Shown: positions 46,358 through 62,802, counted from the first letter of the stretch. The stretch: DNA of 64,000 nucleotides from an uncultured virus (IMG/VR IMGVR_UViG_3300017655_000263) (IMGVR_UViG_3300017655_000263:1-64000); one strand, 5' to 3'. Notes: generated from the sequence alone by a model not told the origin. Numbers and translations: made by a program.

Positions 46358-46420
46358 ATACCTCCTACTAAATACTGATTGCCTAATGTTTCACATGAAA
46401 CGTAAACGTACACCTTTATC

Positions 46421-47095
46421 CTACTTGGAAGTCTTACGCTTCTTCTTCTGTGTTGTCTTCTTGGCTACTTCCTTGATGCCTTCCACGGTGACTCCAGTGA
46501 TCGTTACCTGATCACCAGTCTCTTCATCTCGAAGGACCATAGTGCCCTCGGGAAGTGATGGGTCGGTGGTGACATTCACCTTGGCACCAGCATCCAGGGC
46601 TTCTGCGATACGCTTTTGAGCCGCCTTAGTGCGTCGAACCTTGGCTTTGTCCTTCTGATCGTCCTTCTCATCATCCGCCATTCGGGTCTTTACCTGGGCG
46701 ATGCGTTCCCGGGTCTTCTTGTGTTCGGCCGCAATGGCATCCCTCGTCTTCTGGCCGTCTTCCTGGATATTCGACTGGGTGGCCTCAACGACTGAAGTGG
46801 CTTCTGTGGAGATGACTCCGGCCAATTCGTCGGCCAACGGAAGTTTCTTCACCACCCCGGTTAGCATCTTCACTGCTGTCTGATTGTTCTTGGCATGACT
46901 GGATGACTGACTACGAGTCTCTTCAGCTTCGGAGGTGATGCGCTCCTGCAGATCTATGAAGGGTTTGCGTAGGTCTGGGAACTCTGGGGATTTCCGGTTG
47001 AGCAGGTGATTCTGTTTACTCTCCAGACGGTAGATATACACCCAGAGGGTGAGAATACCGGCGAAGTTGAGGAGGATAAAAGGGATGGGGTTCAT
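46421..47095 (-). CDS. N-terminally membrane-anchored coiled-coil protein
   Basis: FILLNFAGILTLWVYIY TM; charged helical body; ATGA overlap with the TROVE stop. Confidence 0.6.
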   Translation of the reverse strand: MNPIPFILLNFAGILTLWVYIYRLESKQNHLLNRKSPEFPDLRKPFIDLQERITSEAEETRSQSSSHAKNNQTAVKMLTGVVKKLPLADELAGVISTEATSVVEATQSNIQEDGQKTRDAIAAEHKKTRERIAQVKTRMADDEKDDQKDKAKVRRTKAAQKRIAEALDAGAKVNVTTDPSLPEGTMVLRDEETGDQVTITGVTVEGIKEVAKKTTQKKKRKTSK

Positions 47096-48573
47096 ACCTC
47101 CACCTCCTCAATCTCATGAACCAGCGCGTTCTTGTCAACTTCGAGCTTGGGTAATAACTCCAGCGTCTTTTCACTGAACCCTGCCAGGCAGAATACGCGA
47201 TCCTCAGGGAATTGCAGTGTGCCGTAGCCGGCCAGGTCGACTGAGAAGACTGTTGGGTTTGCCCCGGTGCGCTTCTTATACGCGTTGAAGGCTGTGGTTG
47301 GTGTGCGATAGCCCATCCAACCCTGCATATCAGAGAAGATAACGATGCGGTCGTATGCTTTGGTCGCCGTATTGAAGGCAGCTTCAAAGTTGGTGCCGTG
47401 GCCAACGCTTGTAGCACCGCCCCAGCGATTGGCCTCCTCAAGAGCCATCATGATGCTCAAGATGCTGTCGGCCGGGTTGAAGGTGAAATAGCGGGCAGTG
47501 TCACCAAAGTAAATCAGATCGGCGTCCTGAGACTTAGCCAGGGACACACCCAGCAGGGCTCCAGTCTGGAACATCGTTGCCTGGGAGTTGCCACTCATAC
47601 GGCTGTCCATTGAGCCGGAGTGATCGATCACAACCAACGTCTTTCCTGGCATCTCGGGCAGATTTCCGACGGAATGGTCGAGTGCGGTGGACAGGGCCTT
47701 CAAGACCTTATTGGCGCCGGAGACCTGACTCATCTGCTGATACGCGGTGTAGAAGCGGAATGGCAGGACACGGGAGCGACGAACCTGGTTTGGGTCGGCC
47801 AGGGTTTCTAGCGCCTGCTTGATGACGCTCTCGTCTTTTACCTGTTCAACCAAATTCCTTAGGTTACGCAATGTAGCCATGTAACCGAGCTTGCGGTTGG
47901 TAATCAGTTCAGCCCAGGCCTCAGCCTTCAGATCCGCCTTGTCCTCATCGGACTCGGCCGACTTTCCAGCCTCAGTCAGTTTGGCTTCCCAGGTGTCGGT
48001 GTTCTTTAGTGTGCCCTCAATGAGTTGTTTGAGCGCCTCAGTATTCTTGGCTGACGGAACCGGGTGGGTGATGTTAACCAGGTCAATGAGCGACAACGTT
48101 TTGTCTTCACCCCGGTATTTAGCCAGCTGGTAGCCGTCAAACTTGGTCAAACCAGCTGCCAATCCCTTCTTTAGAGAGTTCGGAATCGGCTTGCCGTATT
48201 TGGTTGTGTAGTAGGAAAGGATCTCTGTGGCGTCATCAGGGCGCTGGACAACTGCGGCGAAGAATCGCTTGGTCCATTGCTCACCCTTGACCAGTCGGGC
48301 AACCTCACCGGCGGCCACGTGGCTAATCGAGCGCAGATTGTACTTGGTTCGGGCGAAGAGAGCAGCCTGAGCAGCGAAGCGCTTATCCGGCAGGGTTTCA
48401 ATCAATTCGACGAGACGCCTCATAGTGTTGTCAGCTGATCGGTAGTATTGGTCTGTGACAAATGAATTCAGAAGAATGGAGGCTATTTCAAGCTTCGCAT
48501 CCTCCTTGTATGCGCGACCGCCTGCAAAATTTGTGGTGCGGGTGCCGACTGTTGTGGAATTGAAACGTGACAT
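47092..48573 (-). CDS. Ro60/Rsr TROVE-domain RNA-binding protein with vWA domain
   Basis: TNFAGG.AY, FAAQAALFAR...LRS, YQLAKY, TWE, ATLRNLRN, LPFRF..A and vWA DHSGSM / GT / FSD.Q MIDAS motifs. Confidence 0.93.
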   Translation of the reverse strand: MSRFNSTTVGTRTTNFAGGRAYKEDAKLEIASILLNSFVTDQYYRSADNTMRRLVELIETLPDKRFAAQAALFARTKYNLRSISHVAAGEVARLVKGEQWTKRFFAAVVQRPDDATEILSYYTTKYGKPIPNSLKKGLAAGLTKFDGYQLAKYRGEDKTLSLIDLVNITHPVPSAKNTEALKQLIEGTLKNTDTWEAKLTEAGKSAESDEDKADLKAEAWAELITNRKLGYMATLRNLRNLVEQVKDESVIKQALETLADPNQVRRSRVLPFRFYTAYQQMSQVSGANKVLKALSTALDHSVGNLPEMPGKTLVVIDHSGSMDSRMSGNSQATMFQTGALLGVSLAKSQDADLIYFGDTARYFTFNPADSILSIMMALEEANRWGGATSVGHGTNFEAAFNTATKAYDRIVIFSDMQGWMGYRTPTTAFNAYKKRTGANPTVFSVDLAGYGTLQFPEDRVFCLAGFSEKTLELLPKLEVDKNALVHEIEEVEV

Positions 48574-48605
48574 GTGCCTCCTACGAAAGGTAATAGTGAT
48601 TAGTG

Positions 48606-48696
48606 GGTATTCGATAGCTACCCCTCAACTCCTTGGGAGAAAGTTGAGAGGTATTAAGTCGCCTCATCCGAAGATGAAGGGTAGTCACCGAATATC
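48606..48696 (-). ncRNA. Structured RNA motif (element A) between the Y RNAs and ro60
   Basis: Outer stem GAUAUUCGGUGACUACCC/GGGUAGCUAUCGAAUACC, UCAUC-UUCG-GAUGA hairpin, CUCAACU/AGUUGAG stem; homolog at 60555-60701. Confidence 0.6.
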
Positions 48697-48839
48697 AGTC
48701 CAGCGGGAGAAAACCGAGGTGGGAAATGTACGTGCTCTACCACTGAGCTATGGGGCCCTAGGTGGCCCCAGTTGGATTCGAACCAACGACAACGTCGTTA
48801 AAAGCGAAGTAACCCAATCTCTCACTGCCCGCTGGGCTG
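48696..48839 (-). ncRNA. Y RNA (YrlA-like) 1: permuted tRNA mimic with Lys-UUU anticodon loop
   Basis: Terminal stem CCAGCGGG/CCCGCUGG; CUUUUAA loop, UUGUC, T-arm GUUGG-UUCGAAU-CCAAC, 7-bp acceptor UGGGGCC/GGCCCCA closed by ACCUAG, D-arm GCUC-AGUGGUA-GAGC; next to Ro60. Confidence 0.85.
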
Positions 48840-48849
48840 TGATTTCAAA

Positions 48850-48983
48850 CACTCAGGAGAAAGGTGGGGAGAGTGTAAAAGCGCTCTAACCAACTGAGCT
48901 ACTGAACTTTCGTCCAGACAGGACTCGAACCTGCGACCTCTCGGTTAACATCCGAAGTAACCCTACCCCTCACTACCTGAGTG
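48850..48983 (-). ncRNA. Y RNA (YrlA-like) 2: permuted tRNA mimic with Asn-GUU anticodon loop
   Basis: Terminal stem CACUCAGG/CCUGAGUG; UUCGG-AUGUUAA-CCGAG, AGGUC, GCAGG-UUCGAGU-CCUGU, CUGGAC-GAAA-GUUCAG, GCUC-AGUUGGUUA-GAGC. Confidence 0.85.
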
Positions 48984-48994
48984 AAGTGTTTTCA

Positions 48995-49134
48995 AATGCC
49001 TGGGAGGAAGGTGAGGAGGGTGGAAACATCCTTGCGGACATCGACTGGAATCGAACCAGTATAGGCAACATTTCAAGTGTTGTTGATCACCAAAGATCAG
49101 CGAAGTAACCCTTACCTCTCACTGCCCAAGCATT
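48995..49134 (-). ncRNA. Y RNA-like 3: non-permuted tRNA mimic with Ser-UGA anticodon loop
   Basis: Terminal stem AAUGCUUGGG/CCCAGGCAUU; same 5' GGYAGUGAGRG..GGGUUACUUCG motif; UGAUC-UUUGGU-GAUCA, CAACA-CUUGAAA-UGUUG, ACUGG-UUCGAUU-CCAGU. Confidence 0.8.
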
Positions 49135-49160
49135 CTATGTATTTTTGTATGTACATCTTA

Positions 49161-49189
49161 CTTATACATCTATTATGTATCGTTGTCAA
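49161..49189 (-). promoter_or_regulatory. Promoter of the Y RNA/Ro60 operon
   Basis: TTGACA-N17-TATAAG about 27 nt upstream of Y RNA 3. Confidence 0.75.
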
Positions 49190-49449
49190 TAGGTGAGATA
49201 TTCGCACACTCATCCAAAGAAAAAGGGCCGGGGAGTAAATTCCCCGACCCCAGTTGACCAGAATCATCACTACCGCGTAGTAGATGAAGTCCAGCTGTGG
49301 ATTGTCGATCTCTCGATGCCATCGTTGATGACATGTGTTGCACGCCAGGTGCAGGATGGTCTCTCTTCCATACCTCTTGGGCATAATGTGATGCTTGGAG
49401 GTGTTTTTGCCCTTACGCACAGACCTTCCGCAGAAGAAGCACGTATTGC

Positions 49450-49869
49450 CTAAGCGAAGTGACTGACGACAACGACGGTCTGTTCGACCATCACGCCGTC
49501 CGCGTTCACGTAGCTGTTGTCCTTCTCCTTGCCGACGACGGTGATTGTCTCTCCGCGACGCACGAGGTCTCGGGCAAGCTCTGCCGGTGATCCCCACGCT
49601 TGGATGTTGTGCCATACCGCATCAGCTCCTTGACCAACTCGAAGACCAGCGGTCCAAAGGCTCCTGCCTCTTGGTTGCTGGAATCTTGGTCGGCCTACAA
49701 CACCAGTGAGCGAAATCTCTCCTTTACCAACTACAGGTGCAGGTGGTGGAGTCGGCTCGTCTGGTGGTGAATCTGAAGGTGTGTCATCACCTACGAATTC
49801 CAGGGTATCGACCAGCAACGTCATCTCAGTGAGATGTTGTCTAAGCTGCTGGATGATCTCGTCTTGCAT
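49450..49869 (-). CDS. SSB-like OB-fold protein
   Basis: ISLTGVVGRP...WHNIQAWG..AE......RRG..ITVVG. Confidence 0.7.
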   Translation of the reverse strand: MQDEIIQQLRQHLTEMTLLVDTLEFVGDDTPSDSPPDEPTPPPAPVVGKGEISLTGVVGRPRFQQPRGRSLWTAGLRVGQGADAVWHNIQAWGSPAELARDLVRRGETITVVGKEKDNSYVNADGVMVEQTVVVVSHFA

Positions 49870-50552
49870 GGATCCTGTCTCCTAACAGCGAGTTGGCGAA
49901 GGGGTCGGGACAAAGCCCGGCTGCCCACAACACCAATGCGTGTCGAGCGGCGGTTACCACCATTCGACGTTCCAGCGTCATGCCGAGTGCCTTTTCAATC
50001 GCGTCAGCGACTTCAAAAGCCTGAGAAGGAGTGACTCCCTCCTTGAGATCCAACATGACCGGGCGGCGGGCCTTCAGTTGCTGAATAGCCTGCTCGTACA
50101 TGTCAGCGTCTCCTTTCTGGTATGGAGAAAGGGCAACCGGGGCGATCCGCCACACAGTTACCCTTTAGCCAGGCACTATTCAGTAGTTCAGTCAGCCAAC
50201 CGCGCGGTATTGGCATCAGACTGGTCACCACCGACAGCTAAAGCTTTTCCTCGCCCCTACCGGGCGCATCGACCTTGGCGGTCGTCCATCCGGTTTAGTG
50301 AGGGAGGTTTGCTCTCGATTCAGGAAGCGGAGTGATAGACTCCGCGGATTCGCTGGTGTCACTGGCCAGACCGAGGGACTCCAGGTGTTTGAGGAATAGA
50401 CTTCGCTCCCACCAGGTGTTCATGTCATAGGTGATAGAGCGTTGGCCAGTCTGAGGGTCTTCCAGAATCGAACAGCGAAAGCCGTAGCGATCCTTACCGA
50501 ACCCAACGAACGTAAAACTTGAGTCTTTCGCAGGCATGGCAAAACCCTCCTG

Positions 50553-50606
50553 GATGTTTAGACATCTAGAAGCTTAAACATCTTGACATCTAAACATCTA
50601 GACATC
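50553..50606. repeat. Tandem 8-bp repeat array T(A/T)(G/A)ACATC
   Basis: tagacatc-tagaagct-taaacatc-ttgacatc-taaacatc-tagacatc plus an inverted gatgttta copy. Confidence 0.8.
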
Positions 50607-51085
50607 ATAGAATATGAGGTTGTGAAGGGACGATTAGAGAGGGATTAAGCTCTCACGCCCCAAAGCAGAGGCTGGTCTGTCGACCTGGTACAACCAGGGG
50701 ACATCCAGCGGCAGGCACATGCTCAGGGGAGCGAAAGTTCAAACCGTTTTTGCCTATGGACCTACCCTTAGATCCCGCATCCATCAGACATTGCTGTGTT
50801 CACCGGTACTGCTGATTGCGGTCGGCCTGGGAACAAAAAAGAGCTCCCGGCAGTACTCGGAAGCTCTTGTCTGGCTTGAAGCGATTGTGTTTCAAAACGC
50901 TGGCCGGGTACTGCATGGCTGTATGCATTATATCAAGCAGTTGGCTAGGATTCTGGGCCCTCTCGCCAACCCCGAACCTGGTGTCTCAAGTCGCCTGGTG
51001 GAATAAACCACCGGACGACTGAGTGATCGGGAGACACCCCGGTCGCTCGGTTCACTTTTTGAGGTTGGCGAGAACGTTCAAACAC

Positions 51086-51590
51086 TGAAAGATGGAGAGG
51101 AATTGCCCCGAGGGACTTAGCTCCTCGGCTTGTTGCCCTAGGTGCTCACCAGAACGCCCACCGGTTGCGATGGCGGTAGCGAACCGCCTCACCGGAGTGT
51201 TGTCTAGCGACAACTCTCACTCCATCTTTCAAAATTCGGGCCAGGATGTTTCGAGCGTGTGTCGATCGCTTCCGCGGTTCCTCCCCCAGACCTCCGAAGT
51301 CTGTTTTACCCTCTGCACACGCGCATATGAGGTGGGTTTTCTTGAGTTACCTGGCTCGAATCTGGAGAGGCGTCCGGACGGCCCAACACCCTTTGACGAA
51401 GGTGAGCACTATCCCCTCCAGAGTCCAACCAGCGAACCAGTAGGCAGCCGCCGAAGCTAATCCGCCACATCCCCGCCATGAAGGCAGGTTGCTGGCTCAT
51501 CATGTCCGCTTCCCCGATCAAGGGTTCTAGGCAAGCCCGACACAGACATGGAAAATCTCGTCGGAGAGGTGCCGTTTTGACGGCAGGGAG
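51086..51590. ncRNA. Array of multi-branched structured RNA modules (candidate)
   Basis: Back-to-back closing stems: tgaaagatggag/ctccatctttca, attcgggccagg/cctggctcgaat, tctggag/ctccaga, ccagc..acc/ggttgctgg and catgtc/gacatg; no convincing ORF. Confidence 0.5.
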
Positions 51591-52884
51591 TTTTTACGTC
51601 TTAGGCAACAACCCCACGGAGTACGACCATCTCGTACCAAAACACACAACAGACCTAACACTGTGCCGTGATGACTGTGGAAGCTCTCTGGCTTCAATCC
51701 CCTCCGCTGTGCTTGCCGGCTTGGTGGAGTCCGAACAAACACAGCGCAAGAGACTGACTACTCCGTGTTCCACTCCAGTGGCGACTCTTCGTCCACAAAA
51801 TACTGATTGATTCTGCTTGGATGAAAGCCATAGGCGATGAGTAGACCGACGAAAACCTGAAGCACTTTAGCGACAGTCGCTCCGTCACTAATAGTGTGGC
51901 TCATTGATTCGTTGTTGCCCCCAATCGTGATTTTCATTCCCCTCCTCCGGACAACTCCAGTTCCGTTCCCCGCAATGCTTACATTGGTCACAGAATCGAT
52001 TGATGGGCCATTCCCACCACCGGTGACACTTCCTGCAATCTAGTCGTATTGTTTGTTCCATACCTTACTTATACGCCCCCGAATATAATATGTCAATACA
52101 TAGAAACCCCCGACCTGGATGAACCAAGCCGGGGTACATGTCTCTCTACTGGTGAAAATCGATTACCACCAGGTACTTGCGACCGATGAAATCAGGACTC
52201 ACTACATCTCCCTGGAAGTCAACACAATCGGTGTCAGCCAACGTTCTGCCCTCCCATTGCTTGAGGTGGTCGTGATAGAGCTGTGGCGTGATGAGCATAG
52301 CGTCATCATCTGAGCCACCTTCCACGTAGCCAGTCTCATCATCCCTTCCTATCAGGTAGCCAGAGAACCAACCCCCGACGGAAAAGTAGTCTGCAAGGGG
52401 CGACACGATCGAGAACAGACATCCGTCCACTCCCCCACCTATAAAGGAAGGGTCATTTTCCAGGCGAACCGTCACCTCTTCACGCACCGCGGCCGACGTT
52501 GTACTCTCCGAAGTCGTTGTAATGAGCAATAGATAATGTCCCATAACTCACCTCCGCTTCGATCGGCGCAGAAAGCCCTGATCAATCGGATTACCGGAAT
52601 ACGCCTCAATCCAGACCAACACACCAGCACCAGAATGACTAATCACCTGGGCCCTGGATAGTGTCTCTCCAGAGGACTTACCAATCTGGTCGAGCAAACG
52701 TGCCGCCAGTTCCGGGGTAAGTTCCTGGTTGTAGCCAAAGAACACTCGCTCTCCGGCTTTCAAACGGTCGACGAGATTCTGTCGCTCCTCTGCAGTCATC
52801 TCCTGCTTCCTTTCACTAAGCTCACCAGCCAATCTGATGAACTTGGTAAAAGAAGGGAGCGAGTGGTTGACCCGCTCCCGATGA

Positions 52885-53721
52885 CTAGGCGGCGATTGAT
52901 TGCTCCTGTGATGGAGCTTCAATCTCCAGCCAGCCGGATATCTTCCGCACAGCCAGGTGAATCTCACTCAGGCTCTCATGCAGAGCTTCGACGGTTCCGT
53001 TGTAGGCAATGATGTAATCCCTGCTGAAGGGGTTATCGAGGCCGAAGAGTTTGGCAAGCAGGTAACTTGTGGCTTCCGCGCACAACTCTCTCTGTTGCTT
53101 GGAGGTCTCCTCATGCCGCTCTGAATGCTTGAGTACGATATGGGCCGCTTCATGGAGGAGGCAAAGGAACTTCTCACTGTCAGACAGATTCCTGTTGATA
53201 GTGATTTTGTCGCCTGAAGCCATACCATGAATAGTTGAGGGCAGGTCATCCTCAATGACCAGGACTCCCTGGACACCGATTCCTACCCGGGCCATGGTGT
53301 ACAGACCATCGTAGTCACCCTCCAGTGGATGGGTAAACGACGGAATCTCTACATCGCCTTCGAGCTGAGACACATCAAAGATTGGCAAGGCAAGCCAGCC
53401 AATCAGACGGTTCTCAACCTCTCCAGTCTCTGGATCCGTGACATCCTTGAAGTACGGACCCCGAACCCATACAGCAGACTCACCTTTTCGCACCTGGTAG
53501 CCGAGCTTCTCCCACTGCCTGAAACCAGCACACAATGATGCATCAGGTCGCTGCATCAGGATCAACATGACGTTACCTGGGGAGTACTTGCGGAACCGAC
53601 TATAAAATTCTAAGAGGCGTAAAAACCCCTCGGTATGGCCTTCATTGAGCTGTTGTTCCAGCTCAGTGATAGCCTCGGAAAGCTGCTCCTGTAGCTGATC
53701 GCCACGCTCGCGCCTGTTCAC
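52885..53721 (-). CDS. ArdC-like ssDNA-binding protein with metallopeptidase-like domain
   Basis: FRKYSPGNVMLI..QRP.AS..AGFRQWEKLGYQVRKGE...FDVSQ; LLHEAAH...E..AE. Confidence 0.85.
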   Translation of the reverse strand: MNRRERGDQLQEQLSEAITELEQQLNEGHTEGFLRLLEFYSRFRKYSPGNVMLILMQRPDASLCAGFRQWEKLGYQVRKGESAVWVRGPYFKDVTDPETGEVENRLIGWLALPIFDVSQLEGDVEIPSFTHPLEGDYDGLYTMARVGIGVQGVLVIEDDLPSTIHGMASGDKITINRNLSDSEKFLCLLHEAAHIVLKHSERHEETSKQQRELCAEATSYLLAKLFGLDNPFSRDYIIAYNGTVEALHESLSEIHLAVRKISGWLEIEAPSQEQSIAA

Positions 53722-55253
53722 GTCTTTTCTCCCTTACTAGCCTTGGCTGTCCCGCACGATTGCGAAACACCTTCAGACCAACAAGGAGAGGAAGTTAGAC
53801 AGGCAGTTATTCATCGGCTGTATCAGCGGCGAGTTTATCGAAGTAGCCCAAGCACAATCTGAATGATGAACCAAGCCCCGGCCAGAAGCACTGTGGCGAC
53901 AAGGCAGGTGAAGAGGGCGAGGTCAGGCTTAGACATTTGGATCCTCGATCATTCCATGCCTTTCCATCTCAAGCCACTCTTCCTTTGAGAAGAATCTTTT
54001 ATCAAGGTTGGGTGTGCAGCCACATATCGAACAAACTCCATTTACAACGGTGTGGCTGCCGCATTTGGTGGGTGAAGAGGAGGCAGCTTTGGTTTCCTGA
54101 CCTCCTTCTATAGCTTTGATAAGGGCTTGTTCGTATTCCGATATGCCACTGTTCCTCCCAGCTGCCATATCAATCATTCTTGGGCCGTCTGAAATATGGT
54201 TGACAACCGGGTCTGGCTTCACACTCTTCACCAACTCAATCATCTGGGCCTTGGCTTTATCCTTCTGGGTGTAGTGAATATGGGGAGTCGTGTTTCTTGG
54301 TCTTATGCCTGTAGTTACGTCCCAGCCAAAATCATCTAGTATTTCATCCACACGCTGGGTTTTAATTCCCTCGAATTCGGGGGTTTTAGTTTTGGTGGTG
54401 ACATTAATGTCCTTAGCGAACTCATCTAGGGCTTTGTGGCAATTGCTTATCGGAGATGGGGGATATATTCGAGCCATTATTTCGCCTCCTTCTCTTGGTT
54501 CCACTTGGGCGACTGGCACTTTCGGTTAGGACATTGGGATACAAACCTCTTACGAGGATTCCACTGGTGGCCGCATTGCTGGCAGGTTAGTTTTGTAATT
54601 TCAATTGGTTTATTCATGATTATTGGAGTCAATATATTTTTAGGCAGGGCAGTTTATAGACCTGCCCAGGTCTTGATTATTAAGCCCTGGCGTACCCAAC
54701 ACCTATTGCCGGGTTATCGTTATCCCAGTAGTCATTAGGGTTATTGAAGTCGAAACTATCTGCCTCAACTTCCCATACATCTAACCAAAGATTATCTTCT
54801 GAATCATAGAACCTACCATCAAGATTATCTGTTAGCCAAATACCATTCTCTAGCTCTATCTTGTTCTGTTGATGAGATTCTTTTAACTTCACTACCACTT
54901 CAGGCTGGACCTGTTCAGCCTCTGTATCGCTTACTTGGATAATTAGGATTTTGTTGCTCATAGTTTTAATGCCTTTCTATGAAATATTTATTAATTATTT
55001 AACCTAAATTTAGTATATGACATATCATAATATATGTCAATAGGGCAATTTCTCATATATAAAACCCCATTAATTTTCCCCTCACCACAGCAATAGTTCC
55101 GCCCCAAATGCCTATATGATGCTCCAACAGCATAAAAGAATAGGGACGCCTCAACACGAGAGACGCCCCTTGACACTAGGCTGCTTGGGCCTCCTCATCA
55201 AGCTCCAACCACCCGTAGATGGTCTGCGCACCTCTCGATAAGGCGAGACTGGT

Positions 55254-55670
55254 TCACTTGGGGTTCAGTTCAAGCCAAAGGAGGGCTGCGGCTTCGACAA
55301 TGTTGTCTCTGGACTCTTGGGGACAACTCATCGGCTCTTCTAGCTGCCTTTCAGAATTAGCAATTCTCAAAGTCCAATCGGTGTCGATTACGTCCCAAAA
55401 AACGCTTAGGTCAAAGCCGGACCAACCGTTATCCCATTCGTCAAGATGAGCGTAGGGCTTCAACTGATCCAGAATCTCGGTCAGGATGGGGGCGGCACAC
55501 TGAGGACGGAGCGGTCGTATGGAACCATCAGTCAACATGTTGAAGTCTGTACGCAATACCCAGGTTCCAGGACGACTCAAGGGATCTATCCACTTGAAGG
55601 TACAGTGTTGAGGGAAACCAGCTTCTTTCAGCTTCTGGCACGTCTCTAGGGTTGGTACATGGTTTTTCAT
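55254..55670 (-). CDS. Conserved phage hypothetical protein
   Basis: TLETCQKLKEAGFPQ...APILTEILDQL...VEAAALLWLEL; similar layout to 62803-63204. Confidence 0.6.
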   Translation of the reverse strand: MKNHVPTLETCQKLKEAGFPQHCTFKWIDPLSRPGTWVLRTDFNMLTDGSIRPLRPQCAAPILTEILDQLKPYAHLDEWDNGWSGFDLSVFWDVIDTDWTLRIANSERQLEEPMSCPQESRDNIVEAAALLWLELNPK

Positions 55671-56355
55671 AGTAAGTAGGGTGGGGAGTCGCTTAGCGGT
55701 GGACTCCCCAATAACCGTTTGTCTCTACTTCTTGTCGCCCCAAAGCCTCTGAGCTTGCTTTATCACATCAATGCGATCTTCCAGCTCGTACTCTCGCTCC
55801 TGGATATCGGCCAAGGTTGGCGTCAGATCTTGTTGCAGGGCTTGGAGGTCCTTATCGAGTCGCTGCATAATGCGGATGGACTCGTTCAGGTTGGCACGGA
55901 TCTTACCCAGTCGAAGGACTGCTCGCTCTTGGTTGAGCATGTCAATAGTCCTCCGCAAATAAAATCGTGATCGCCACACCATCCTCTAAAACCCAGACCT
56001 GCCTGCCGTGGAAGTCGAATGTGTACATTCGCTCTTCTTCAGGCAATTCCTCAGCGGTCAGAATCCACTCCAGCCAACCATCCCAAACCTTTTGCAGGTC
56101 AGCATGAGTCAAGCTTTCCGCAATAGCTGCGGTCATCACCAGTCGCTTGGGTGGATGGGAGTTGTAACAGCGGTTATCGAACGGCTCCTGCAACACACCA
56201 TCGGCCAACGCCTGGTCTACCGAATACGAATGGATAACAAAATCCCAGTCTCCGTTTTGCTTGTCGCTCACGGATAGCTCCTAGCCTCTCTCGCTACTCA
56301 GAAAATGGTCTGAGCACCGATGAAGCCAGGAGGGATAACTAGGATCTAGTCATTT

Positions 56356-56928
56356 TCAGCTTCCGAAATTCAGCCCCTTGGTGGGCAATAGTCGGCCGCG
56401 GAGCATGGTATTTAGCTCCTCAATTACCCTGTCTCGAACTAATTCATCTTCCTTGATATAGGCCAAGGTCATATGCGCTTTATAGCCCGGGAAAGTGTTG
56501 ATGTGGGGGAGGAACTTCAGACGCTCGTTACACTCCTGGAGTTCCGGGGTGATAACAAGGTGGGCGACGATACAGTAGTAGGGTTCGTCTGCCTTGGGAC
56601 TATCAAAATAGCCAACCTCGTCGATTTGCACGGTGGGCGGACACACATTGCCGCTATTGAGCACCTGCAATATGTGCTTCTGCATCTCGGGACCACTTCG
56701 CAATAGGCCATAGAGCAAGGTTACGTGTGGTTCTCCAGCAACTATTCCCGTGGCATAGCTGGCCGGATCTTCATCAACATAGACCTCCTCCGGCTTGATG
56801 GCCTCGCTGACTCGCTTCCCCAGGTCTTCCGGGTCGATATCAAGCATGATGCAGCCGAGTCGGCCGATGTCATAACCCAAATTCTCATACATCGATATGA
56901 ATTGATACGCACTGATTTGTTTCTCCAT
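56356..56928 (-). CDS. 2H phosphodiesterase, Acb1/T4 gp57B-like
   Basis: Two HxT motifs, PHVTLLYG and FPGYKAHMTLAY; SD AAGGAGG. Confidence 0.8.
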   Translation of the reverse strand: MEKQISAYQFISMYENLGYDIGRLGCIMLDIDPEDLGKRVSEAIKPEEVYVDEDPASYATGIVAGEPHVTLLYGLLRSGPEMQKHILQVLNSGNVCPPTVQIDEVGYFDSPKADEPYYCIVAHLVITPELQECNERLKFLPHINTFPGYKAHMTLAYIKEDELVRDRVIEELNTMLRGRLLPTKGLNFGS

Positions 56929-57348
56929 CTACCTCCTTGGTGAGTACTTGTCTTTCCGGCTGCCATCTGCTGCCTCCCAGAATCGAGGGACATGAGATGA
57001 ATCCGGATATTTAGTTATCGTCCCGCCAAAATGGTCTTTCGTAGAGGTCGGGATCATATCTCACGTCATGCCGACCACAACCCGAGCATACAAAGAGGTG
57101 AAATCCGCACTCTGGCGTCCACCAAAACCACTTTCTCTTCCCATCAATCTCGCTGTAGTTGTGAGCTCCCTTGAGCTTCTTGCACCACTTGGCCGTGGAT
57201 CGGTTGACCTTGCTTGGCATAGATGTACTGGCAGATTTTTTCTCTCGTTGCTGGACGGCCTTGGGTGTACTCCAATTGATGAGTTTCTTTGACATGATCC
57301 TCCGAAATGGGTTGGGGATAGTTTTCGGCATCCCCTATGCCGTTACCT

Positions 57349-57870
57349 CTATTCTTCAGCAACGACTCCCAATGCAGTAAGAAAGTCACCAATCTGGGAC
57401 TTCTTGATTTTCGTATTGCCTCCTCGACCATAGAACTTGGCTCCACTCAGGTTGGCTCCACTCAGGTTGGCTCCACTCAGGTTGGCTCCACTCAGGTTGG
57501 CCTTACTCAGGTCGGCTTCATACAAGTTGGCTCCATACAGGTCGGCTTCACGCAGGTTGGCTCCACTCAGGTCGGCTCCACTCAGGTCGGCTTCATACAA
57601 GTTGGCTCCATACAGGTCGGCTTCACGCAAGTCGGCTTCACGCAAGTCGGCTTCATACAGGTCGGCTCCATACAGGTTGGCTTTACTGCTCAAGACCGCT
57701 TCTATCACTGTTCTTTTATCCGTCTCGGCCAGAATCGAGCCATCTCTTTTATAGAGGGTTACCCCTTTAGTCTTCTCAGAATCCTTAGCCTGAATATGCC
57801 GCTGCAACTCTTCAATTTTCCTCTTAGCTTCCTCAACACTTAGATCACTGGGTTTTGGTTGTATAAACAT
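57349..57870 (-). CDS. Pentapeptide-repeat protein
   Basis: A(D/N)LxE/G repeats encoded by near-identical 15-nt units. Confidence 0.9.
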   Translation of the reverse strand: MFIQPKPSDLSVEEAKRKIEELQRHIQAKDSEKTKGVTLYKRDGSILAETDKRTVIEAVLSSKANLYGADLYEADLREADLREADLYGANLYEADLSGADLSGANLREADLYGANLYEADLSKANLSGANLSGANLSGANLSGAKFYGRGGNTKIKKSQIGDFLTALGVVAEE

Positions 57871-58302
57871 CTTATGAGTCTCCTAAAGAAATGGAGGAGT
57901 TTAGCGGCACCCCTCAGGCCGTTGTCTCTTAATATGGTGGCATTGCCTCATCCCCAATATCGCCGTTCTGCTCGCTGTAATAGTCGTCATAGCGGCGGTC
58001 GTGGTCATCCTGCTCTTCGTCGTCCAATTCGTCGGTCATTCCAGACCAGTCTTCAGGTTCGTCGTCCCGGTAGTGCTCTTCCGCTCCGTCAAGCCAAGGC
58101 CTAGACCAGTAAGGGATGCTCATACGTCATCGCCTGCAATTCTCCTGGTATGCTCATCGATCCGGTAGCGGGTATCCCAGCGCAGGAAGCGCCAGATTGC
58201 CTTTAGTCTCTCTCGCAATCGCATAGTCTACTCCTAGCCTTTTGCCTCGATACCCAAAAGGTTGAGTACCGAAGTAGGGGCCAGGAGTCGTCATGTGGAG
58301 CA

Positions 58303-58509
58303 CTACTTCCTGGATTTAGCAGCGATAACCACAATCCCAATAATCAGAGCAACTAGAAGGACAACGATTAGGCCGCCGTAAAGAGGCAGCAGGACTAACC
58401 ACCAGGGCCAGTCAATATACCCAGTCAGCTTTAGTCCAATAAATAGAACACCTAATAGTGTAAGTAGACCTGGGCCTCCGTAAGATAGCCCTGACTTAGA
58501 TTCACCCAT
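58303..58509 (-). CDS. Small phage membrane protein
   Basis: LFIGLKLTGYIDWPWWLVLLPL, a common phage TM family. Confidence 0.7.
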   Translation of the reverse strand: MGESKSGLSYGGPGLLTLLGVLFIGLKLTGYIDWPWWLVLLPLYGGLIVVLLVALIIGIVVIAAKSRK

Positions 58510-58563
58510 ATACCTCCTGTGTAATATCTTCCTTATACGCTCATATTTACATTATGTCAATAT

Positions 58564-59094
58564 CTAATCACCTTGCAGGATGCACAATATCTTCTTGTAC
58601 GCTTCCTCGACCCGTTCCTGATGAAAAACAATATTCCTGATAAATTCATCATCATAGATGCTCTTGGAGTAATAGGAGACATCTAACGAGTATTTGGACT
58701 TCACCCCAGGGAAGAATCTCCTATATAATAACTGGGTTATCCATTCACACTCGAACTCTTTTCTCATCTCGGATATTTCACTATTCGACACTCTGTTATG
58801 ACCAAGCACGAAGTGACTCAACTCATGAAAAAGAGTCCAGGCTCTACTTTCGGCAGATACATTCTTACTAATCAGAATCGTCTCTGTAAGTATCGTTCTC
58901 TGTCCATTTGAATCCTCCTTGAATAAGGCGCTTACTGTACCGCTGGGCTTTGTAGGTGGAATGTCTGTCAATCTCACAGGGATATTTGCCTGTTTAAGTA
59001 GAGGTTCCCACTTATCCCAGAGAAGTCGCGCTCTGATATCTACATGGTCTTCTGCAATTGAACTCGCGCACATTTCTGGCACATCCTTATTCAC
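58564..59094 (-). CDS. ImmA/IrrE-like metallopeptidase (start uncertain)
   Basis: R.WTLFHELSHFVLGH...E.EC. Confidence 0.7.
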   Translation of the reverse strand: MNKDVPEMCASSIAEDHVDIRARLLWDKWEPLLKQANIPVRLTDIPPTKPSGTVSALFKEDSNGQRTILTETILISKNVSAESRAWTLFHELSHFVLGHNRVSNSEISEMRKEFECEWITQLLYRRFFPGVKSKYSLDVSYYSKSIYDDEFIRNIVFHQERVEEAYKKILCILQGD

Positions 59095-59130
59095 AATGGG
59101 TTCAAGGGATCTCCTTGCTGGAGTATACGG

Positions 59131-59166
59131 AAAGAAAGAAGGGGCGTCTCGAGTGGAAACGCCCCT
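59131..59166 (-). terminator. Intrinsic terminator after the J-domain gene
   Basis: GGGGCGUUUC...GAGACGCCCC stem followed by UUCUUUCUUU on the minus strand. Confidence 0.65.
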
Positions 59167-59170
59167 GTGT

Positions 59171-59752
59171 TTAATAAGAAGTCTTGGCCTCGTTATAAGC
59201 CTCAACCACAAGCTTGAACATGTGGGTGTTGCCACCCTTGTCGGGGTGGTAAATCTTCACCATGCGTCGATATGCCGACTCAATCTCGTCCAGCGTTGCT
59301 TCGGGTGACACATCCAGGATGGTCCACCATCCGCTAGAGACTGAACTACTATCTCCGGGAGGAAGAGCAGCAAAGCCGCGGAAAGCAGCGTCGACCATCT
59401 CTTTGGCCCCCCAACGATCCAACCCTCGTAAAGCCCCTACAGTTAACTCAAGAGCGTGGACATTGTCCTCAAGAAAAACCCACTTATCACAAGGCAGGCA
59501 CCGTTGCTCACCATGAAGAGTGAAATAAACAGCGACACCGGTGTCGTGGATTTTTGGCTGTCTGGCAGAGATTTCGCCGTTCTTATTCAGAGCGGCATTA
59601 GAGCTAATGATAATGTCACTCGCTCCAAGTCGTTCGAGTTCTCGGGTCAGACCATTCCTGGCCTGGACCAATCCAGTTTGAAACTTGGAATATTGGGGAT
59701 TCTGCTCCCGTGGCCAACCATCCGGCCACTGCAAGGGATAAGCTTCAGTCAC
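59171..59752 (-). CDS. Phage J-domain (DnaJ-like) protein
   Basis: AYPLQWP.GWPR N-terminus; C-terminal WW.ILDV...AYR......HPDKGG. Confidence 0.88.
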   Translation of the reverse strand: MTEAYPLQWPDGWPREQNPQYSKFQTGLVQARNGLTRELERLGASDIIISSNAALNKNGEISARQPKIHDTGVAVYFTLHGEQRCLPCDKWVFLEDNVHALELTVGALRGLDRWGAKEMVDAAFRGFAALPPGDSSSVSSGWWTILDVSPEATLDEIESAYRRMVKIYHPDKGGNTHMFKLVVEAYNEAKTSY

Positions 59753-60554
59753 TTGTGACCATCCTTTCTAGAGAGCTAAAAGAGGTTCTCTTTTCTGTTC
59801 TTGGAGTCAAAATAATCCAGGTTGGCTCACTTCTATTTCGGGATGCAAGATCTCTTCGAACAGCTTTTCCAGCGAGAAGATATACAGGCAGGGTACGCCA
59901 CCCACCATTGTCACAGCTACCTGCCGACTCTTGAGCTTGACACTCTCTCCGTTGAACCAGGCATAGTTGCCGACGTTGGCACTGAGGTGAAGTGATCCGA
60001 TACTCATGATGCCCGACGCTGTGTACTCGACCGTATCACCCCTGAGTGCGTATGGACTCAACCAACGCTTTACTTCCTGTTTGGCAATTGTCTCCAAAAT
60101 GCCCATTATCACCCTCCGTATTAGAACCAATCCCGATGACTAGCTCTAGGCGAAGGGTGACGTTAGAACGCCGTATATCCTTTCATCAGAATTAGAGGGA
60201 GAGCAGCCAAGTAGCCACCCTCCCTCACGTCTCTCCACGAGACCCTGCCGGATCAACGGACACGAACCGCATGGTTCAAACAACGCCCGGAGATTCTTGT
60301 CTCCTCTCCGAGTCTCGCAAGAAAACGGAGACCTCCTGGCCCAGCTGGGGGAGCAATGGCCGGAGGTCTCCTCTTGCTCACGAAACCTTCAATCGCTCAT
60401 CGAAGAGCTGGGACGCTTGGAGCATGGATAAGACCCCTTCGCCAAAAGCCAGCCTCTTCGATCAACGATCGAGGCTCAATCCGTCTCAGAAGAACAGGAG
60501 ATGTGAGAAAAATTAGCAAAAACCCACACCTAAAGGCCTGTCCTTCTGGGAAGA

Positions 60555-60701
60555 ATCGAGACTATCCCCTCAACTCATCGCAGGAAGTTTAAAACCGACG
60601 CCGAAGACGCCGACGCCAGCATATTGGGTATTTTGCTGCTTCCAACGAAGGTTGAGAGGTTAAATCGATACCCCAGCCGAAGCTGAGGGGACAATCTCGA
60701 T
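60555..60701 (-). ncRNA. Structured RNA motif (element B), homolog of element A
   Basis: 20-bp AUCGAGAUUGUCCCCUCAGC/GUUGAGGGGAUAGUCUCGAU pairing with three G-U pairs valid only on the minus strand; cUUCGg loops. Confidence 0.6.
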
Positions 60702-60706
60702 CATTT

Positions 60707-60915
60707 GTCATGAATCTCAGTGAGGGGGCAGGAGTTGCCGAGATGCCATTTACGCACATACGCTGAGAGGTACGCTATTGCAACTCGTAAAGTCACCTGC
60801 ATTACTGGATCTCCGTCCCCAGCACCGCGGCCGAAGCTTGACCTCGCCGGCTCGAGCCGGCATGAGTTGCGGCGTGTCTATCTGCTTTGCACCACCCCTC
60901 ACTTAGATTCATGAC
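60707..60915 (-). ncRNA. Structured RNA module C
   Basis: 21-bp closing inverted repeat gtcatgaatct(c/a)agtgagggg with one mismatch; internal hairpins such as gccggctcgagccggc. Confidence 0.5.
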
Positions 60916-60930
60916 TGTCATCATCAAACC

Positions 60931-61123
60931 AACCCAGGGACTCTAGGATTCGAACCTAGGTGGACATTATTGATCCAGGCAATTTCGTTTCATTTCCATC
61001 TGCCTGTAGGTTGGAACTCCCTCAGATTGGAACTCGATCTAGCCGCCCTATAGATTCTCCCTACCAATCGTTACAAAGAATCCAAAGCTCACACTCGCCA
61101 TCCCTGTGAATGTACCCCTGGGT
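60931..61123 (-). ncRNA. Structured RNA module D with a tRNA T-arm near its 3' end
   Basis: CUAGG-UUCGAAU-CCUAG then GUCCCUGGGU pairing with 5' ACCCAGGG; directly downstream of the promoter at 61165-61193. Confidence 0.55.
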
Positions 61124-61164
61124 CGGATTGATGACGTATTTGCTTGTTCATGTGCTATACATTA

Positions 61165-61193
61165 CTTATACGCCTAATGCAATACTATGTCAA
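61165..61193 (-). promoter_or_regulatory. Cassette promoter driving the 60.2-61.1 kb RNA array
   Basis: TTGACA-N17-TATAAG. Confidence 0.72.
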
Positions 61194-61250
61194 TACATCA
61201 ATTTAGGCCCTGGACAGAAGAAAACCCCACCAAGAGGTGGGGCTGTGAGC

Positions 61251-61514
61251 CTACTTATAGACTTGTCGGCGATGAGCAATCTTGATCACGGCAATAATCA
61301 GTACGTCATTCTCGAACTCGCAGATAATCCGGTAGTCACCGACGCGGTAGCGCCAAAGACCTAAAAAGTCTGCTGTTAGGGCCTTTCCTCGCACTCGCGG
61401 GTTCTCAAGGCTACTAACCTCTTCGAGATATTTGATGATTCTTTCTTGCCAGGTGCGATCGATCTTGCGCAGCGCCTTCCGGGCTGCCGGTTCAAATTCA
61501 ACTCGCCAAACCAA
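61251..61514 (-). CDS. relE: RelE/StbE-family toxin
   Basis: WRVEF...ARKALRKID...PR..GKAL....GLWRYRVGDYRIIC...HRRQVY. Confidence 0.9.
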   Translation of the reverse strand: MVWRVEFEPAARKALRKIDRTWQERIIKYLEEVSSLENPRVRGKALTADFLGLWRYRVGDYRIICEFENDVLIIAVIKIAHRRQVYK

Positions 61515-61725
61515 GCTCTCTCTTGACCTCCTCGAACGGAATCCTCTGGTTGCCTTCGGCGAGGATCGCCTGAGCATCCCTGATGTCTTCCTGGTCCTCT
61601 AGCCATTCAAGCAAGGCTTCCTGAGCAAGACTCTGCTTGTCACGACCTGTTAAGTGGGCGAGTTCAGTCAGCTCATCGTCGATTTCGCTATCGATAAGGA
61701 GGGTTACTTTTCGTGTTGTTGCCAT
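61498..61725 (-). CDS. RelB-like RHH antitoxin
   Basis: L.ELA..TGR.K...EAL.E.LED.ED...IPFEEVKRELGL; overlaps the toxin start. Confidence 0.85.
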   Translation of the reverse strand: MATTRKVTLLIDSEIDDELTELAHLTGRDKQSLAQEALLEWLEDQEDIRDAQAILAEGNQRIPFEEVKRELGLAS

Positions 61726-62802
61726 GTAGTGCCATCCTTTCGAGGTCACGCCTCCTTCTAATAGTAGCATCGGATTAGAACAGTGAAGGCTGTTGCGGCT
61801 TCTCATCCATCTCCGCCAACTGGCGGGTGTGGTAAGCAATGTGATTGCGTATCAACTGCATGGAAGTCACCAAAGCAAGCTGGTCGTCTCCACCGAAAGC
61901 GATCTCCCTGTCATAGTGACTCAAGGACTCAACACCACGCTCCTGCATGTCTGCAAGCCGCTGCCTACGTTCTTCGAGTTTGGCTACAATGTCCTCTCTG
62001 GTCTCTTTCACTGCATCACCCTTCTAGCTGTGGTCGACCGACAATCGATCAACCCCAGGCAGCGGATGACGCTGCCTACGCTTCCGTTTGCTTACCGGCT
62101 TAGGAGTCCTGCGTATCCGACTCGACTGGACTTATTATCGAGTCGATAGCCTGTATCATTTGGGCCTTGAGACGTGGGTCTTGCCTGAATGAGTTGACTG
62201 CTTTATCTACTGAGCCAGATAGCTCACCGACAAGCAGCTTGGCAACCTTATGCCTGAACTCAATCCTTAGTTGATTCTTGAACTCATCATCAAGCACCAC
62301 CTCCTTGAGAACGTCCTTCAGAACTGCCTCAAACTCTGGGGATACTTCAGCCATTACTTTATTCACGACTTCTCTTGCAGGGCTGCTATATTCGTTCGTC
62401 AGCCTATCCCTGAGAGCCGATACAAGAATGTCGCGCATATCTTCTTTACTTATCAATACTTCTTTCACTGTCCTCCATTCTGCGGCTAGGCCGCAATGTC
62501 CTTGTAATAGGCGTTTGCCTCTTCCTCCGTACTGAACAGCTTATCTGCTGGCCGAACGATCAACCCATCACTCTCGACGACGGTCACCACCCAGCGGCCC
62601 TTGAAGATATCGGAAAGATAGGGCTTGTCGACGCGCTCCACCACAAACTCTCGTGGCTGGTCTTTGTGCTCCTGGATCTTCTGGCGAAGCGCTGCGAGCT
62701 CCTCTGGCGTCTTGGGCTTTCGGTTGCGCAACGCCTCGTTGCTACGGTCGACTTCGGCCTGGCGCTGCTCGTAGAACTTCTTGGCGGAGACGTTGGGGAT
62801 GT

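Follow-up and report, generated by a model that had tools for sequence, protein, structure and literature searches.

A compact RNA module conserved in untranslated regions of unrelated phages and present twice in a provirus that encodes Ro60

Results

Two copies of an RNA module in a Ro60-encoding provirus

The stretch of DNA analysed here (the window, 64,000 nt) comprises bases 1-64000 of a 74,944-base provirus record of an uncultured virus in IMG/VR (IMGVR_UViG_3300017655_000263). The phage is tailed, i.e. portal, terminase and major head genes are present, and the minus strand of the window carries a gene for Ro60 (ro60, 47092..48573), which encodes a protein of 493 amino acids with TROVE and vWA domains, as assigned from Pfam, PHROGs and the sequence. 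An RNA element, in the following called the module, occurs twice on the same strand, as copy A (48609..48693, 85 nt) and as copy B (60554..60702, 149 nt). Both were delimited by sequence, folding and the covariance model R1 described below, with scores of 76.1 and 75.1 bits, respectively. An initial annotation of the sequence had placed copy A in the ro60 leader, in agreement with our finding that it ends 35 nt before the ro60 ATG, with AGGAGG within the spacer.

The two copies share the same order of parts, i.e. the 12-nt 5′ strand of an outer stem (P1), the dinucleotide CC, a hairpin of 7 bp with a stable UUCG tetraloop (P2), a linker (10 nt in A, 11 nt in B), a second stem (P3) and the 3′ strand of P1. 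In minus-strand order, copy A consists of the P1 5′ strand (48693-48682), CC (48681-48680), P2 (48679-48673 and 48668-48662, enclosing the loop 48672-48669), the linker (48661-48652), the P3 5′ strand (48651-48643), a loop (48642-48630), the P3 3′ strand (48629-48621) and the P1 3′ strand (48620-48609). The corresponding parts of copy B are the P1 5′ strand (60702-60691), CC (60690-60689), P2 (60688-60682 and 60677-60671, loop 60681-60678), the linker (60670-60660), the P3 5′ strand (60659-60651), a structured insert (60650-60575), the P3 3′ strand (60574-60566) and the P1 3′ strand (60565-60554). The P3 strands are CCUCUCAAC and GUUGAGGGG in both copies, and the hairpin CCUCUCAAC...AGUUGAGGGG is identical in A and B. 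The pattern CCTCTCAAC-N(4-90)-GTTGAGGGG, which describes P3, has two occurrences in the 74,944-base record, both on the minus strand; the plus strand contains none, and a reversed control pattern has none either.

The initial annotation had described an outer stem in both copies, a cUUCGg hairpin with compensatory changes and a long insert in the last loop of copy B. All three are borne out: P1 pairing is retained though most of its positions differ (alignments A1 and A2), P2 is formed by CUUCAUC/GAUGAGG in A and by CCUCAGC/GCUGGGG in B, and the insert within P3 of copy B measures 76 nt. A segment of the form GG..CGA.UUAA..CC had also been described; it is common to the linkers of A and B, but the five other members of the family (see below) conserve only the linker length (11 nt), not its sequence.

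Five further members in other phages

Pattern searches in viral and metagenome contigs added five members, each with a P1 of its own, so that the family comprises seven distinct members in six records, i.e. A, B, G001 (contig L134), L198, L200, G002 (L206) and G003 (L211). Among these designations, L134 is the provirus G001 and L196 stems from the same phage, while L200 and L201, L206 and G002, and L211 and G003 are equivalent. A scan for the P3 hairpin returned 22 stretches, mostly terminator-like hairpins, with a single member (L134). Combining P2 with the P3 5′ strand retrieved the L134 contig again from the viral collection and seven stretches from the metagenome collection; four of the latter are members, representing three distinct sequences (L196, L198 and L200/L201), and the remaining three lack P3 and were discarded. 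With P2 followed by CCTC, 14 stretches were obtained, including two new members in which P3 is altered, to CCUCCUGAC/GUCGGGGGG in G002 and to CUCUCCAGC/GCUGGGGGG plus a long insert in G003. Although neither P1 nor the P3 3′ strand was specified in the search patterns, both are present in all seven members. P1 has at least 10 pairs (10-12 bp) in five of the seven, 6-7 in G002, and is interrupted in G001.

Several other candidates were rejected. The loose pattern TTCGG-N(12-20)-CCTCTCAAC yielded at least 116 stretches; none of those listed was counted as a member, and the single one among them with a near-match to GTTGAGGGG has neither P2 nor P1. One junction-like stretch with the exact P3 hairpin (L145, 39-111, minus strand) lies in a levivirus replicase gene (Pfam RNA_replicase_B, 2.9e-45), scores 24.8 bits and was treated as a chance occurrence. 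The P2 hairpin alone retrieved plain terminators, i.e. a hairpin CCCCUCAUC-GAAA-GAUGRGGGG followed by a U tract, almost identical to P2, at nine terminator-like loci in six other phage contigs (L223-L232), with three copies in one contig and two in another.

Covariation of the module

The statistics were derived from a MAFFT alignment (A2) of the seven members, with the three-way junction of P1, P2 and P3 as the structure (28 pairs, 196 cells). The cells are compatible with pairing in 92.9% of cases, compared with 76.6 +/- 2.1% for shuffled alignments and at most 53.1% for slid partners. Both-side changes were found for 14 of the 28 pairs, a value reached by one of 500 shuffles, and the covariation score (0.534 vs 0.206) was reached by none of 500. 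The three helices differ in this respect. P1, whose sequence is free, has both-side changes in 10 of its 12 pairs, P2 has two among seven pairs and P3 two among nine, with four invariant pairs in each of the last two; part of this constancy in P2 and in the P3 5′ strand was imposed by the search patterns, an effect that does not extend to the P1 result, to the presence of the P3 3′ strand or to the comparison of A with B. The four junction-proximal pairs of P3 are C-G, C-G, U-G and C-G in every member; P2 comes near to this series, with the same U-G wobble in six of the seven. The CC before P2 is invariant.

Model R1 (86 positions, 28 pairs) gives 67.5-76.4 bits for the members. Among the non-members in 510,816 bases, the highest score is 27.3 bits, obtained on the strand opposite to a member, followed by 25.0 and 24.8 bits; another 539,611 bases contain nothing above 21.2 bits, and plain P2-type terminators score 19-26 bits. 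Searches of whole records recovered the two copies in the provirus of the window and one copy each in G001, G002 and G003. The opposite strand of a member thus scores at most 27.3 bits and many of the pairs are G-U, which together show that the fold exists only on the gene-sense strand. These results leave little doubt that A and B belong to a real, conserved RNA family.

Two nearly isoenergetic folds

Both copies fold better than all of 200 shuffled sequences (z-scores of -3.9 for A and -4.8 to -5.9 for B). Because the P2 5′ strand resembles the P3 5′ strand, a nearly isoenergetic extended rod can form in addition to the junction, and the rivalry of two 5′ segments for GUUGAGGGG proposed in the initial annotation is real: in A and B the rod is the minimum-free-energy fold, and the junction lies 1.5-2.6 kcal/mol higher. 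In constrained folding of the family, the gap between the two forms is 0.1-2.6 kcal/mol in six of the seven members and 7.6 kcal/mol in L200, with fold energies of -23 to -66 kcal/mol. The alternative rod is possible in all members, its inner helix having no both-side changes and one column that is unpaired in six of the seven.

The rod contains a helix of 20 bp with one mismatch in A and of 22-23 bp in B. In the junction form, the 12-bp P1 abuts the 9-bp P3 with no nucleotide between them. Both forms thus offer the approximately 20 bp (about two turns) of continuous or coaxial double-stranded RNA that a substrate of RNase III requires, and the module may be cleaved. Copy A can be viewed as a long hairpin of P1 stacked on P3, with the loop CUCCCAA and with P2 as an extra branch. 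The other members have P3 loops of 4-5 nt or long inserts, and the P3 spacer varies from 4 to about 95 nt across the family.

No match to known RNA classes

The 4227 models of Rfam 15 gave no match on A and B, neither at the gathering threshold (window) nor at E<=10 (46000-62500), and nothing was found at E<=1 on the member loci of G001, G002, L198 and L200. On the G003 module, the only overlap was a weak one with SSRC38 (RF02527; 26 bits compared with a gathering score of 80, E 0.47). The motif was not found in print either, i.e. in the full-text literature searched for the two 9-mers (matches to unrelated papers only), in the Y RNA literature and in Rfam. The module is absent from every catalogue searched and is a new RNA family. 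The suggestion of a new non-coding RNA in the initial annotation accordingly stands, with an Rfam scan of A and B that found no match and with homologues and covariation that do exist.

Individual known classes were also considered and rejected. No match to YrlA (RF02553, gathering score 69) overlaps 48609-48693 or 60554-60702, even at E<=10. A tRNA-like nature was dismissed: the T-arm motif GGTTCGANTCC occurs four times in the window and never inside A or B, a D-arm mimic is lacking, and ARAGORN makes no call there. A rho-independent terminator was rejected for A and B, as neither is followed by a U tract or flagged by the scans; P2 with a U-rich linker was flagged as terminator-like in two of the four other members scanned (G001 and L200, not G002 and G003). 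A riboswitch was discounted as the CC before P2 represents the only invariant unpaired positions and the linker sequence is not conserved. Ribozyme topologies, including HDV-like (hepatitis delta virus) and hammerhead, were rejected on inspection by eye, since they require pairings that the module lacks and the unpaired nucleotides of its core vary.

Genomic setting of the members

All seven members are intergenic and have the same orientation as both flanking open reading frames (ORFs). Copy B is located within a 1.1-kb gene-free gap between a ParE/RelE pair and an ORF of 107 codons. Two stem-closed RNA domains (60707..61136, minus strand), recognized by folding, a T-arm scan and the ORF list, lie directly upstream, and copy B begins 4 nt after the second one. 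Domain 1 (~61136-60917) contains the T-arm GGUUCGAAUCC at 60956-60946, the fourth in the window, and domain 2 (~60915-60707) has a Y-like basal helix AAGUGAGGGG/CCCCCUCACU without the GGGUUACUUCG hallmark of the Y-RNA-like units described below. The fold of 60540-61170 has a z-score of -5.0, and the three successive stem-closed domains in the gap 60130-61250 have no Rfam match. This gap (minus strand) follows the terminator of the ParE/RelE pair and a promoter-like TTGACA-17-TATAAG near 61192-61164. Promoter-like sites were found about 80 nt upstream of G001 and about 450 nt upstream of B.

The long-loop members (B, L200 and G003) are embedded in 600-1100 nt (600-700 nt for L200 and G003) of gene-free, highly structured RNA (z-scores of -5.0, -11.1 and -6.1, respectively), which consists of successive stem-closed domains. 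Directly after the L200 member, a 230-nt RNA (1880-2110, plus strand) is closed by a 22-bp stem (z-score -7.0); it matched no family and includes GGGCAGUGAGAG, with which a Y-like 5′ strand begins. A Y-like GAGUUACUUCG upstream of the same member was dropped, being unstructured and probably coding sequence (z-score +2.5). The short-loop members (A, G001, L198 and G002) are close to possible starts: in G001 an ATG follows P3 directly; in L198 P1 begins 5 nt after the stop of the upstream ORF, GGAGG is part of the P1 3′ strand and an ATG lies 1 nt past P1; in G002 a doubtful GTG ORF begins 3 nt after P1, and the next large ORF about 180 nt further on.

The four carrier genomes have GC contents of 41-51% and share almost no genes: an all-vs-all blastp comparison revealed a weak portal match, a YopX match and an HNH protein common to three of them, and nothing else. 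The flanks of the members are likewise unrelated, with the exception of a 366-nt stretch that lies just downstream of the L198 module and 1.6 kb upstream of the G002 module. Consequently, the module is a discrete cassette without a constant gene partner, and it must work alone or via a host factor. In G001-G003 it is found at most 7 kb from one record end and in two of them near an integrase. Seventeen loci related to the DnaJ-like gene downstream of copy B were searched by blastn and with R1 without finding a module.

The 50,697 phage records searched include no close relative of the phage: both module loci were without a match in megablast and blastn, and in a search with the portal protein every match was below 27% identity. 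The pentapeptide protein, searched in a protein atlas, matched viral clusters only. Four DNA sequencing runs were examined, and contigs of two of them, from another habitat, contain a related phage in which both copies are covered. The piece with copy A has 10 differences over 1,739 bases, and that with copy B has seven differences and one inserted base over 300 bases, the inserted base lying behind 60600, within the P3 insert. In the related phage of run X9, positions 60801-61128, i.e. domain 1 and part of domain 2, are swapped for 422 other letters, while copy B and the flanking genes are retained. The non-coding array is thus mosaic.

Relation to Ro60 and Y RNAs

Directly upstream of copy A, three Y-RNA-like units (48699..49128, minus strand) were identified from sub-threshold YrlA matches and motif scans, with the approximate extents ~49128-48996 (Y1), ~48984-48852 (Y2) and ~48836-48699 (Y3); copy A begins 5 nt after Y3. 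The 5′ strands of the units end in GGGUUACUUCG (at 49109, 48961 and 48813), and each unit has a T-arm GGUUCGAnUCC and a 3′ strand with UUUCUCC. Two of them score 42.3 and 40.5 bits with the YrlA model, below its gathering score of 69. The GGGUUACUUCG-type motif also occurs upstream of ro60 in other phages, whether found via the protein or via the motif. ARAGORN reports a tRNA-Asn (48909-48984) and an odd "tRNA-???" (49034-49127), which overlap Y2 and Y1 and reach only 20-22 bits with the Rfam tRNA model; both appear to be tRNA-mimicking portions of the Y RNAs and not functional tRNA genes.

On the other side of ro60, the next gene is an ORF of 224 codons without assigned function, followed by genes for RNA ligase (45083-46357) and polynucleotide kinase (44194-45159), as annotated with Pfam and PHROGs. 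Together with ro60, they form an RNA-repair block on the minus strand. Besides Ro60, the phage has a broad RNA-repair set of polynucleotide kinase/phosphatase, RNA ligase, a 2H (LigT-like) phosphoesterase and two metallophosphoesterases (44194-46357, 56356-56928, 28179-28946 and 40436-41302). Such sets are used by phages against host anticodon nucleases.

The initial annotation had noted that CUUUCUCCC in copy A resembles the 3′ strands of Y RNAs, and this likeness is genuine. The P3 5′ strand and loop of copy A are identical to the Y1 3′ strand at 16 of 19 positions (shuffle p 0.0015), and the P3 3′ strand is identical to the Y2 5′ strand at 15 of 17 (shuffle p 0.004), both values being the best of 12 comparisons before correction. 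The corresponding p values for copy B are 0.04-0.76, and copy A is the only member with a Y-RNA-stem-like P3. Y1, Y2, domain 2 and the two copies of the module have a helix UGAGRGG:CCYCUCA in common; across the genome, the word is not significantly enriched (35 vs 26 +/- 6). From the sequence, P3 of copy A looks like a Y basal stem folded back on itself, and copy A alone may possibly bind Ro60. Given this resemblance of the strands, Ro60 binding to copy A stays a testable idea.

For the family, the picture is different. Copy A has the closeness to a Ro60 gene (a few kb at most) that is typical of Y RNAs; copy B, at a distance of 12 kb, does not, and G001-G003 have no Ro60. G001, which is 99% complete, gave no TROVE match with the Pfam model, and none of the ORFs of G001-G003 resembles the Ro60 of the window at E<=1e-5. 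Conversely, R1 at E<=10 found nothing in 15 viral and 14 bacterial Ro60 loci (2.5-3 kb flanks) or in eight loci fetched by a Y-RNA pattern, and blastn did not find the module in the Ro60-guided loci. These other loci do contain Y RNAs, and a plain terminator usually precedes ro60. The module as a family is not linked to Ro60, and Ro60 autoregulation, which had been proposed as a possible function of the motif, fails for the family on the position of copy B, on the three carriers without Ro60 and on the 29 other Ro60 loci without a module.

Two side observations were made at the other Ro60 loci. In AT-rich phages (L003, L004, L007, L008, L010, L011, L013 and L015, ~2500-2990; also L156 and L158), whose Ro60 is 42-51% identical, ro60 is preceded by a short Y RNA without a tRNA module, then by a Y-like RNA of ~250-300 nt and then by a terminator. 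The longer RNA has a conserved interior, e.g. GUUUCGGGAGAAUUCU...AGGCUAAAUU, and no Rfam match at E<=0.01 in the loci searched. In the viral contigs L015, L016 and L017 (3001-5136), the match to Ro60 extends over 2,130 nt, compared with the usual length of about 1,450 nt, and is distributed over three ORFs, suggesting an inserted intron or intein in ro60.

Discussion

A proposed boundary, processing and protection element

The module has a conserved, strand-specific fold closed by P1, is present in sense orientation in untranslated RNA, and depends neither on Ro60 nor on any phage protein shared by its carriers. A riboregulator or processing element, as envisaged in the initial annotation, is the most reasonable class, while the tie to Ro60 that had been attached to it does not hold, with copy A as a possible exception. 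Our tentative preference, to which we give somewhat less than an even chance, is that the module acts in cis as a boundary, processing and protection element in long leaders. It would be transcribed in the sense of the neighbouring genes, within long untranslated leaders or intergenic RNA, and would fold during transcription, the look-alike hairpins P2 and P3 forming first and the ends closing later as P1. Either fold would present a continuous or coaxial helix of about 20 bp. The module would terminate an array of stem-closed small RNAs, i.e. the three Y RNAs before ro60 and domains 1 and 2 at copy B, and would be a candidate cutting site for a double-strand-specific endonuclease of the RNase III type. 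The downstream message would be left with a stable 5′ structure, which in some members would cover the ribosome-binding site or the start codon.

Several observations weigh against this reading. The sequencing runs contain no RNA run listed with this phage, and no transcript, RNA end or cleavage was seen. The next real start codon lies at variable distances (0-35 nt in A, G001 and L198 vs about 180-420 nt in G002, G003 and B), and in G003 a terminator-like hairpin upstream has a U tract that runs into the P1 5′ strand, an arrangement that is hard to explain for a simple leader element. Seven sequences are few, the model E-values are rough, and the search patterns account for part of the constancy of P2 and P3. 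In addition, a plain processing stem needs neither two sequence-conserved hairpins nor an invariant CC nor a fixed linker length; these features suggest specific recognition and fit better with a protein-binding RNA.

Alternative explanations

Such an RNA, i.e. a free, trans-acting small RNA of 80-150 nt that is cut from a precursor and binds a protein, is a serious possibility and nearly as likely as the cis-acting boundary element. For copy A, it would be a second-type (YrlB-like) Y RNA for the phage Ro60, and for the family a decoy or adaptor for a conserved host protein, in accordance with the lack of a shared phage partner. Its architecture would be like that of its neighbours, with the ends paired in a long terminal stem, and the look-alike helices with their invariant U-G, together with CC and a linker of constant length, point to recognition by a protein, possibly a dimer. 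Copy A has the position that YrlB has in Mycobacterium smegmatis, between YrlA and rsr, and its P3 strands resemble the Y1 and Y2 stem strands. However, excision would behead the message in G001 and L198, if the starts in or 1 nt after the P1 3′ strand are real. The 5′ strand has no CGAA or GNCGAAN0-1G, the module has no T-arm, and it is not followed by a consistent terminator or a defined 3′ end.

A translational switch appears unlikely. It would toggle between junction and rod, or be opened by an upstream ribosome or a bound protein, and thereby expose or hide the next ribosome-binding site, which at copy A would amount to the Ro60 autoregulation of the initial annotation. The near-equality of the two forms in six of the seven members is compatible with this idea, as are the Shine-Dalgarno-like G-rich 3′ strands (GAGGGG and GGAGG) paired with CCUC strands, the starts at the ends of the L198 and G001 modules, the stop of the upstream ORF just before P1 in L198, and the closeness of copy A, with its Y-stem-like P3, to ro60. 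Yet copy A neither contains nor pairs with the real Shine-Dalgarno sequence of ro60 (AGGAGG) or its ATG, and for B, L200, G002 and G003 the nearest ORF start is at least about 180 nt away. As the inner helix of the rod shows no both-side changes and has a column that is mostly unpaired, the bistability could be a by-product of similar hairpins. The folds, at -23 kcal/mol or below, are too stable for a thermometer, and a ligand pocket is unlikely with only CC conserved among the linker and junction nucleotides. Still less probable is a role at the DNA level or a selfish origin, i.e. a hairpin signal in single-stranded DNA, a sequence that serves recombination or marks a boundary, or a small mobile cassette inserting into existing hairpins, in which case the apparent covariation of P1 would be a mere difference in landing sites. 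The module is indeed a discrete cassette with unrelated flanks in unrelated phages, close to record ends and in two cases to an integrase, and the relative that swapped the DNA just upstream of B kept B itself. But the linker and the loops have fully diverged while P2 and P3 were kept and covary, unlike in a recently mobile element; the conserved U-G pairs, and many G-U pairs in P1, would be A-C mismatches on the opposite strand; the orientation matches that of the flanking genes in seven of seven cases; and the range of P3 spacers excludes a duplex-DNA site for a dimeric protein. The least probable explanation, to which we attach very little weight, is a functionless leftover of tandem terminator hairpins. 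In G001 and L200, P2 and its U-rich linker do look like a terminator, and the same hairpin serves as a plain terminator-like site at the nine loci in other phages; neither A nor B has a U tract or a terminator flag, the covarying P1, the fixed linker length and the invariant CC would be unexplained, and the plain terminators score poorly with R1.

Comparison with known systems

Second-type bacterial Y RNAs include YrlB of M. smegmatis and S. Typhimurium and Yrn2 of D. radiodurans, and in M. smegmatis, YrlB is encoded between YrlA and rsr (Chen et al. 2014, PMC4201824). That paper and PMC12135203 give as the hallmark of Ro60 ligands a GNCGAAN0-1G or CGAA close to the 5′ end, within a bulged stem in which the two ends of the RNA pair. 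Copy A resembles YrlB in its location between the last tRNA-like Y RNA and ro60, perhaps also in being long and paired from end to end with a pyrimidine-rich terminal loop, and in that it would share a precursor with the Y RNAs. It differs in that the module has no 5′-strand GNCGAAN0-1G or CGAA and no T-arm, and has an extra side hairpin: the only CGAA of copy A is in the P1 3′ strand (AUCGAAUA), where it is fully paired, and copy B has CGAG and CGAU but no CGAA. A further difference is that the module family also occurs in phages without Ro60 and, as copy B, far from ro60. With YrlA (RF02553), the module has in common the place beside ro60 (copy A), a terminal stem that closes an internal module and the UGAGRGG:CCYCUCA helix, which it shares with Y1 and Y2 of this phage; it differs from YrlA in lacking a T-arm or D-arm mimic and any Rfam match at E<=10. 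In the Thermus phage phiLo, Yrl1 and Yrl2 lie upstream of the phage ro60, the complex is 2:2, and the CGAA is presented in a stem-bulge-stem in which each of the four bases matters for binding (PMC12135203). The 2:2 particle invites comparison with the two look-alike helices of the module, which differs in lacking the stem-bulge-stem arrangement of CGAA.

This comparison can be taken one step further: the module might be a portable element that mimics the basal stem of Y RNAs at two sites. Each look-alike helix (G.UGRGG / CCYCUCA.C, with the fixed U-G) would copy the helix beside the conserved AGUGAG / UUUCUC elements in the Y RNAs of this phage, and one module would dock two Ro60/Rsr rings or one dimer, as in the 2:2 Ro60-Yrl2 particle of phiLo. 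We regard this as improbable. If it were true, the phage would have a Ro60 feedback site in the leader of ro60 itself and a second depot 12 kb away, and in phages without ro60 the module would capture the host Rsr-PNPase machinery.

Outside the Y RNAs, RNase III hairpins of the T7 type are intergenic helices of ~20 bp on the sense strand, with or without a side branch, that split the precursor and leave protective structures. The module may be of this kind, being likewise intergenic, on the sense strand and endowed with a helix of ~20 bp. To our knowledge, RNase III processing sites are not known as a sequence family common to unrelated phages. The put RNAs of phage HK022 are cis-acting, have two stem-loops and occur twice per genome, downstream of promoters; their stems are adjacent and are not known to be enclosed by a closing stem. 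The module also has two hairpins and occurs twice in one genome; it differs in being enclosed by P1, in lying after rather than before a terminator-like hairpin in G003, and in having no evident tie to RNA polymerase. The terminators of L223-L232, finally, have almost the same stem-loop as P2 and consist of a single hairpin with a U tract, without P1 and P3, at 19-26 bits vs 67-76 for module members. They are not members of the family and may indicate where the P2 hairpin has come from.

Significance

The module would represent a new compact phage RNA family, of ~80 nt at its smallest, with strong compensatory support, and covariance model R1 is sufficient to start a full database search. It also provides a concrete candidate RNA for the phage Ro60. 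Autoregulation of Ro60 throughout the family is unsupported. The module is located at the ends of stem-closed small-RNA arrays, including an array of three Y units before a Ro60/RNA-repair cassette, and it could shed light on the way in which these arrays are cleaved or kept apart from the downstream messages.

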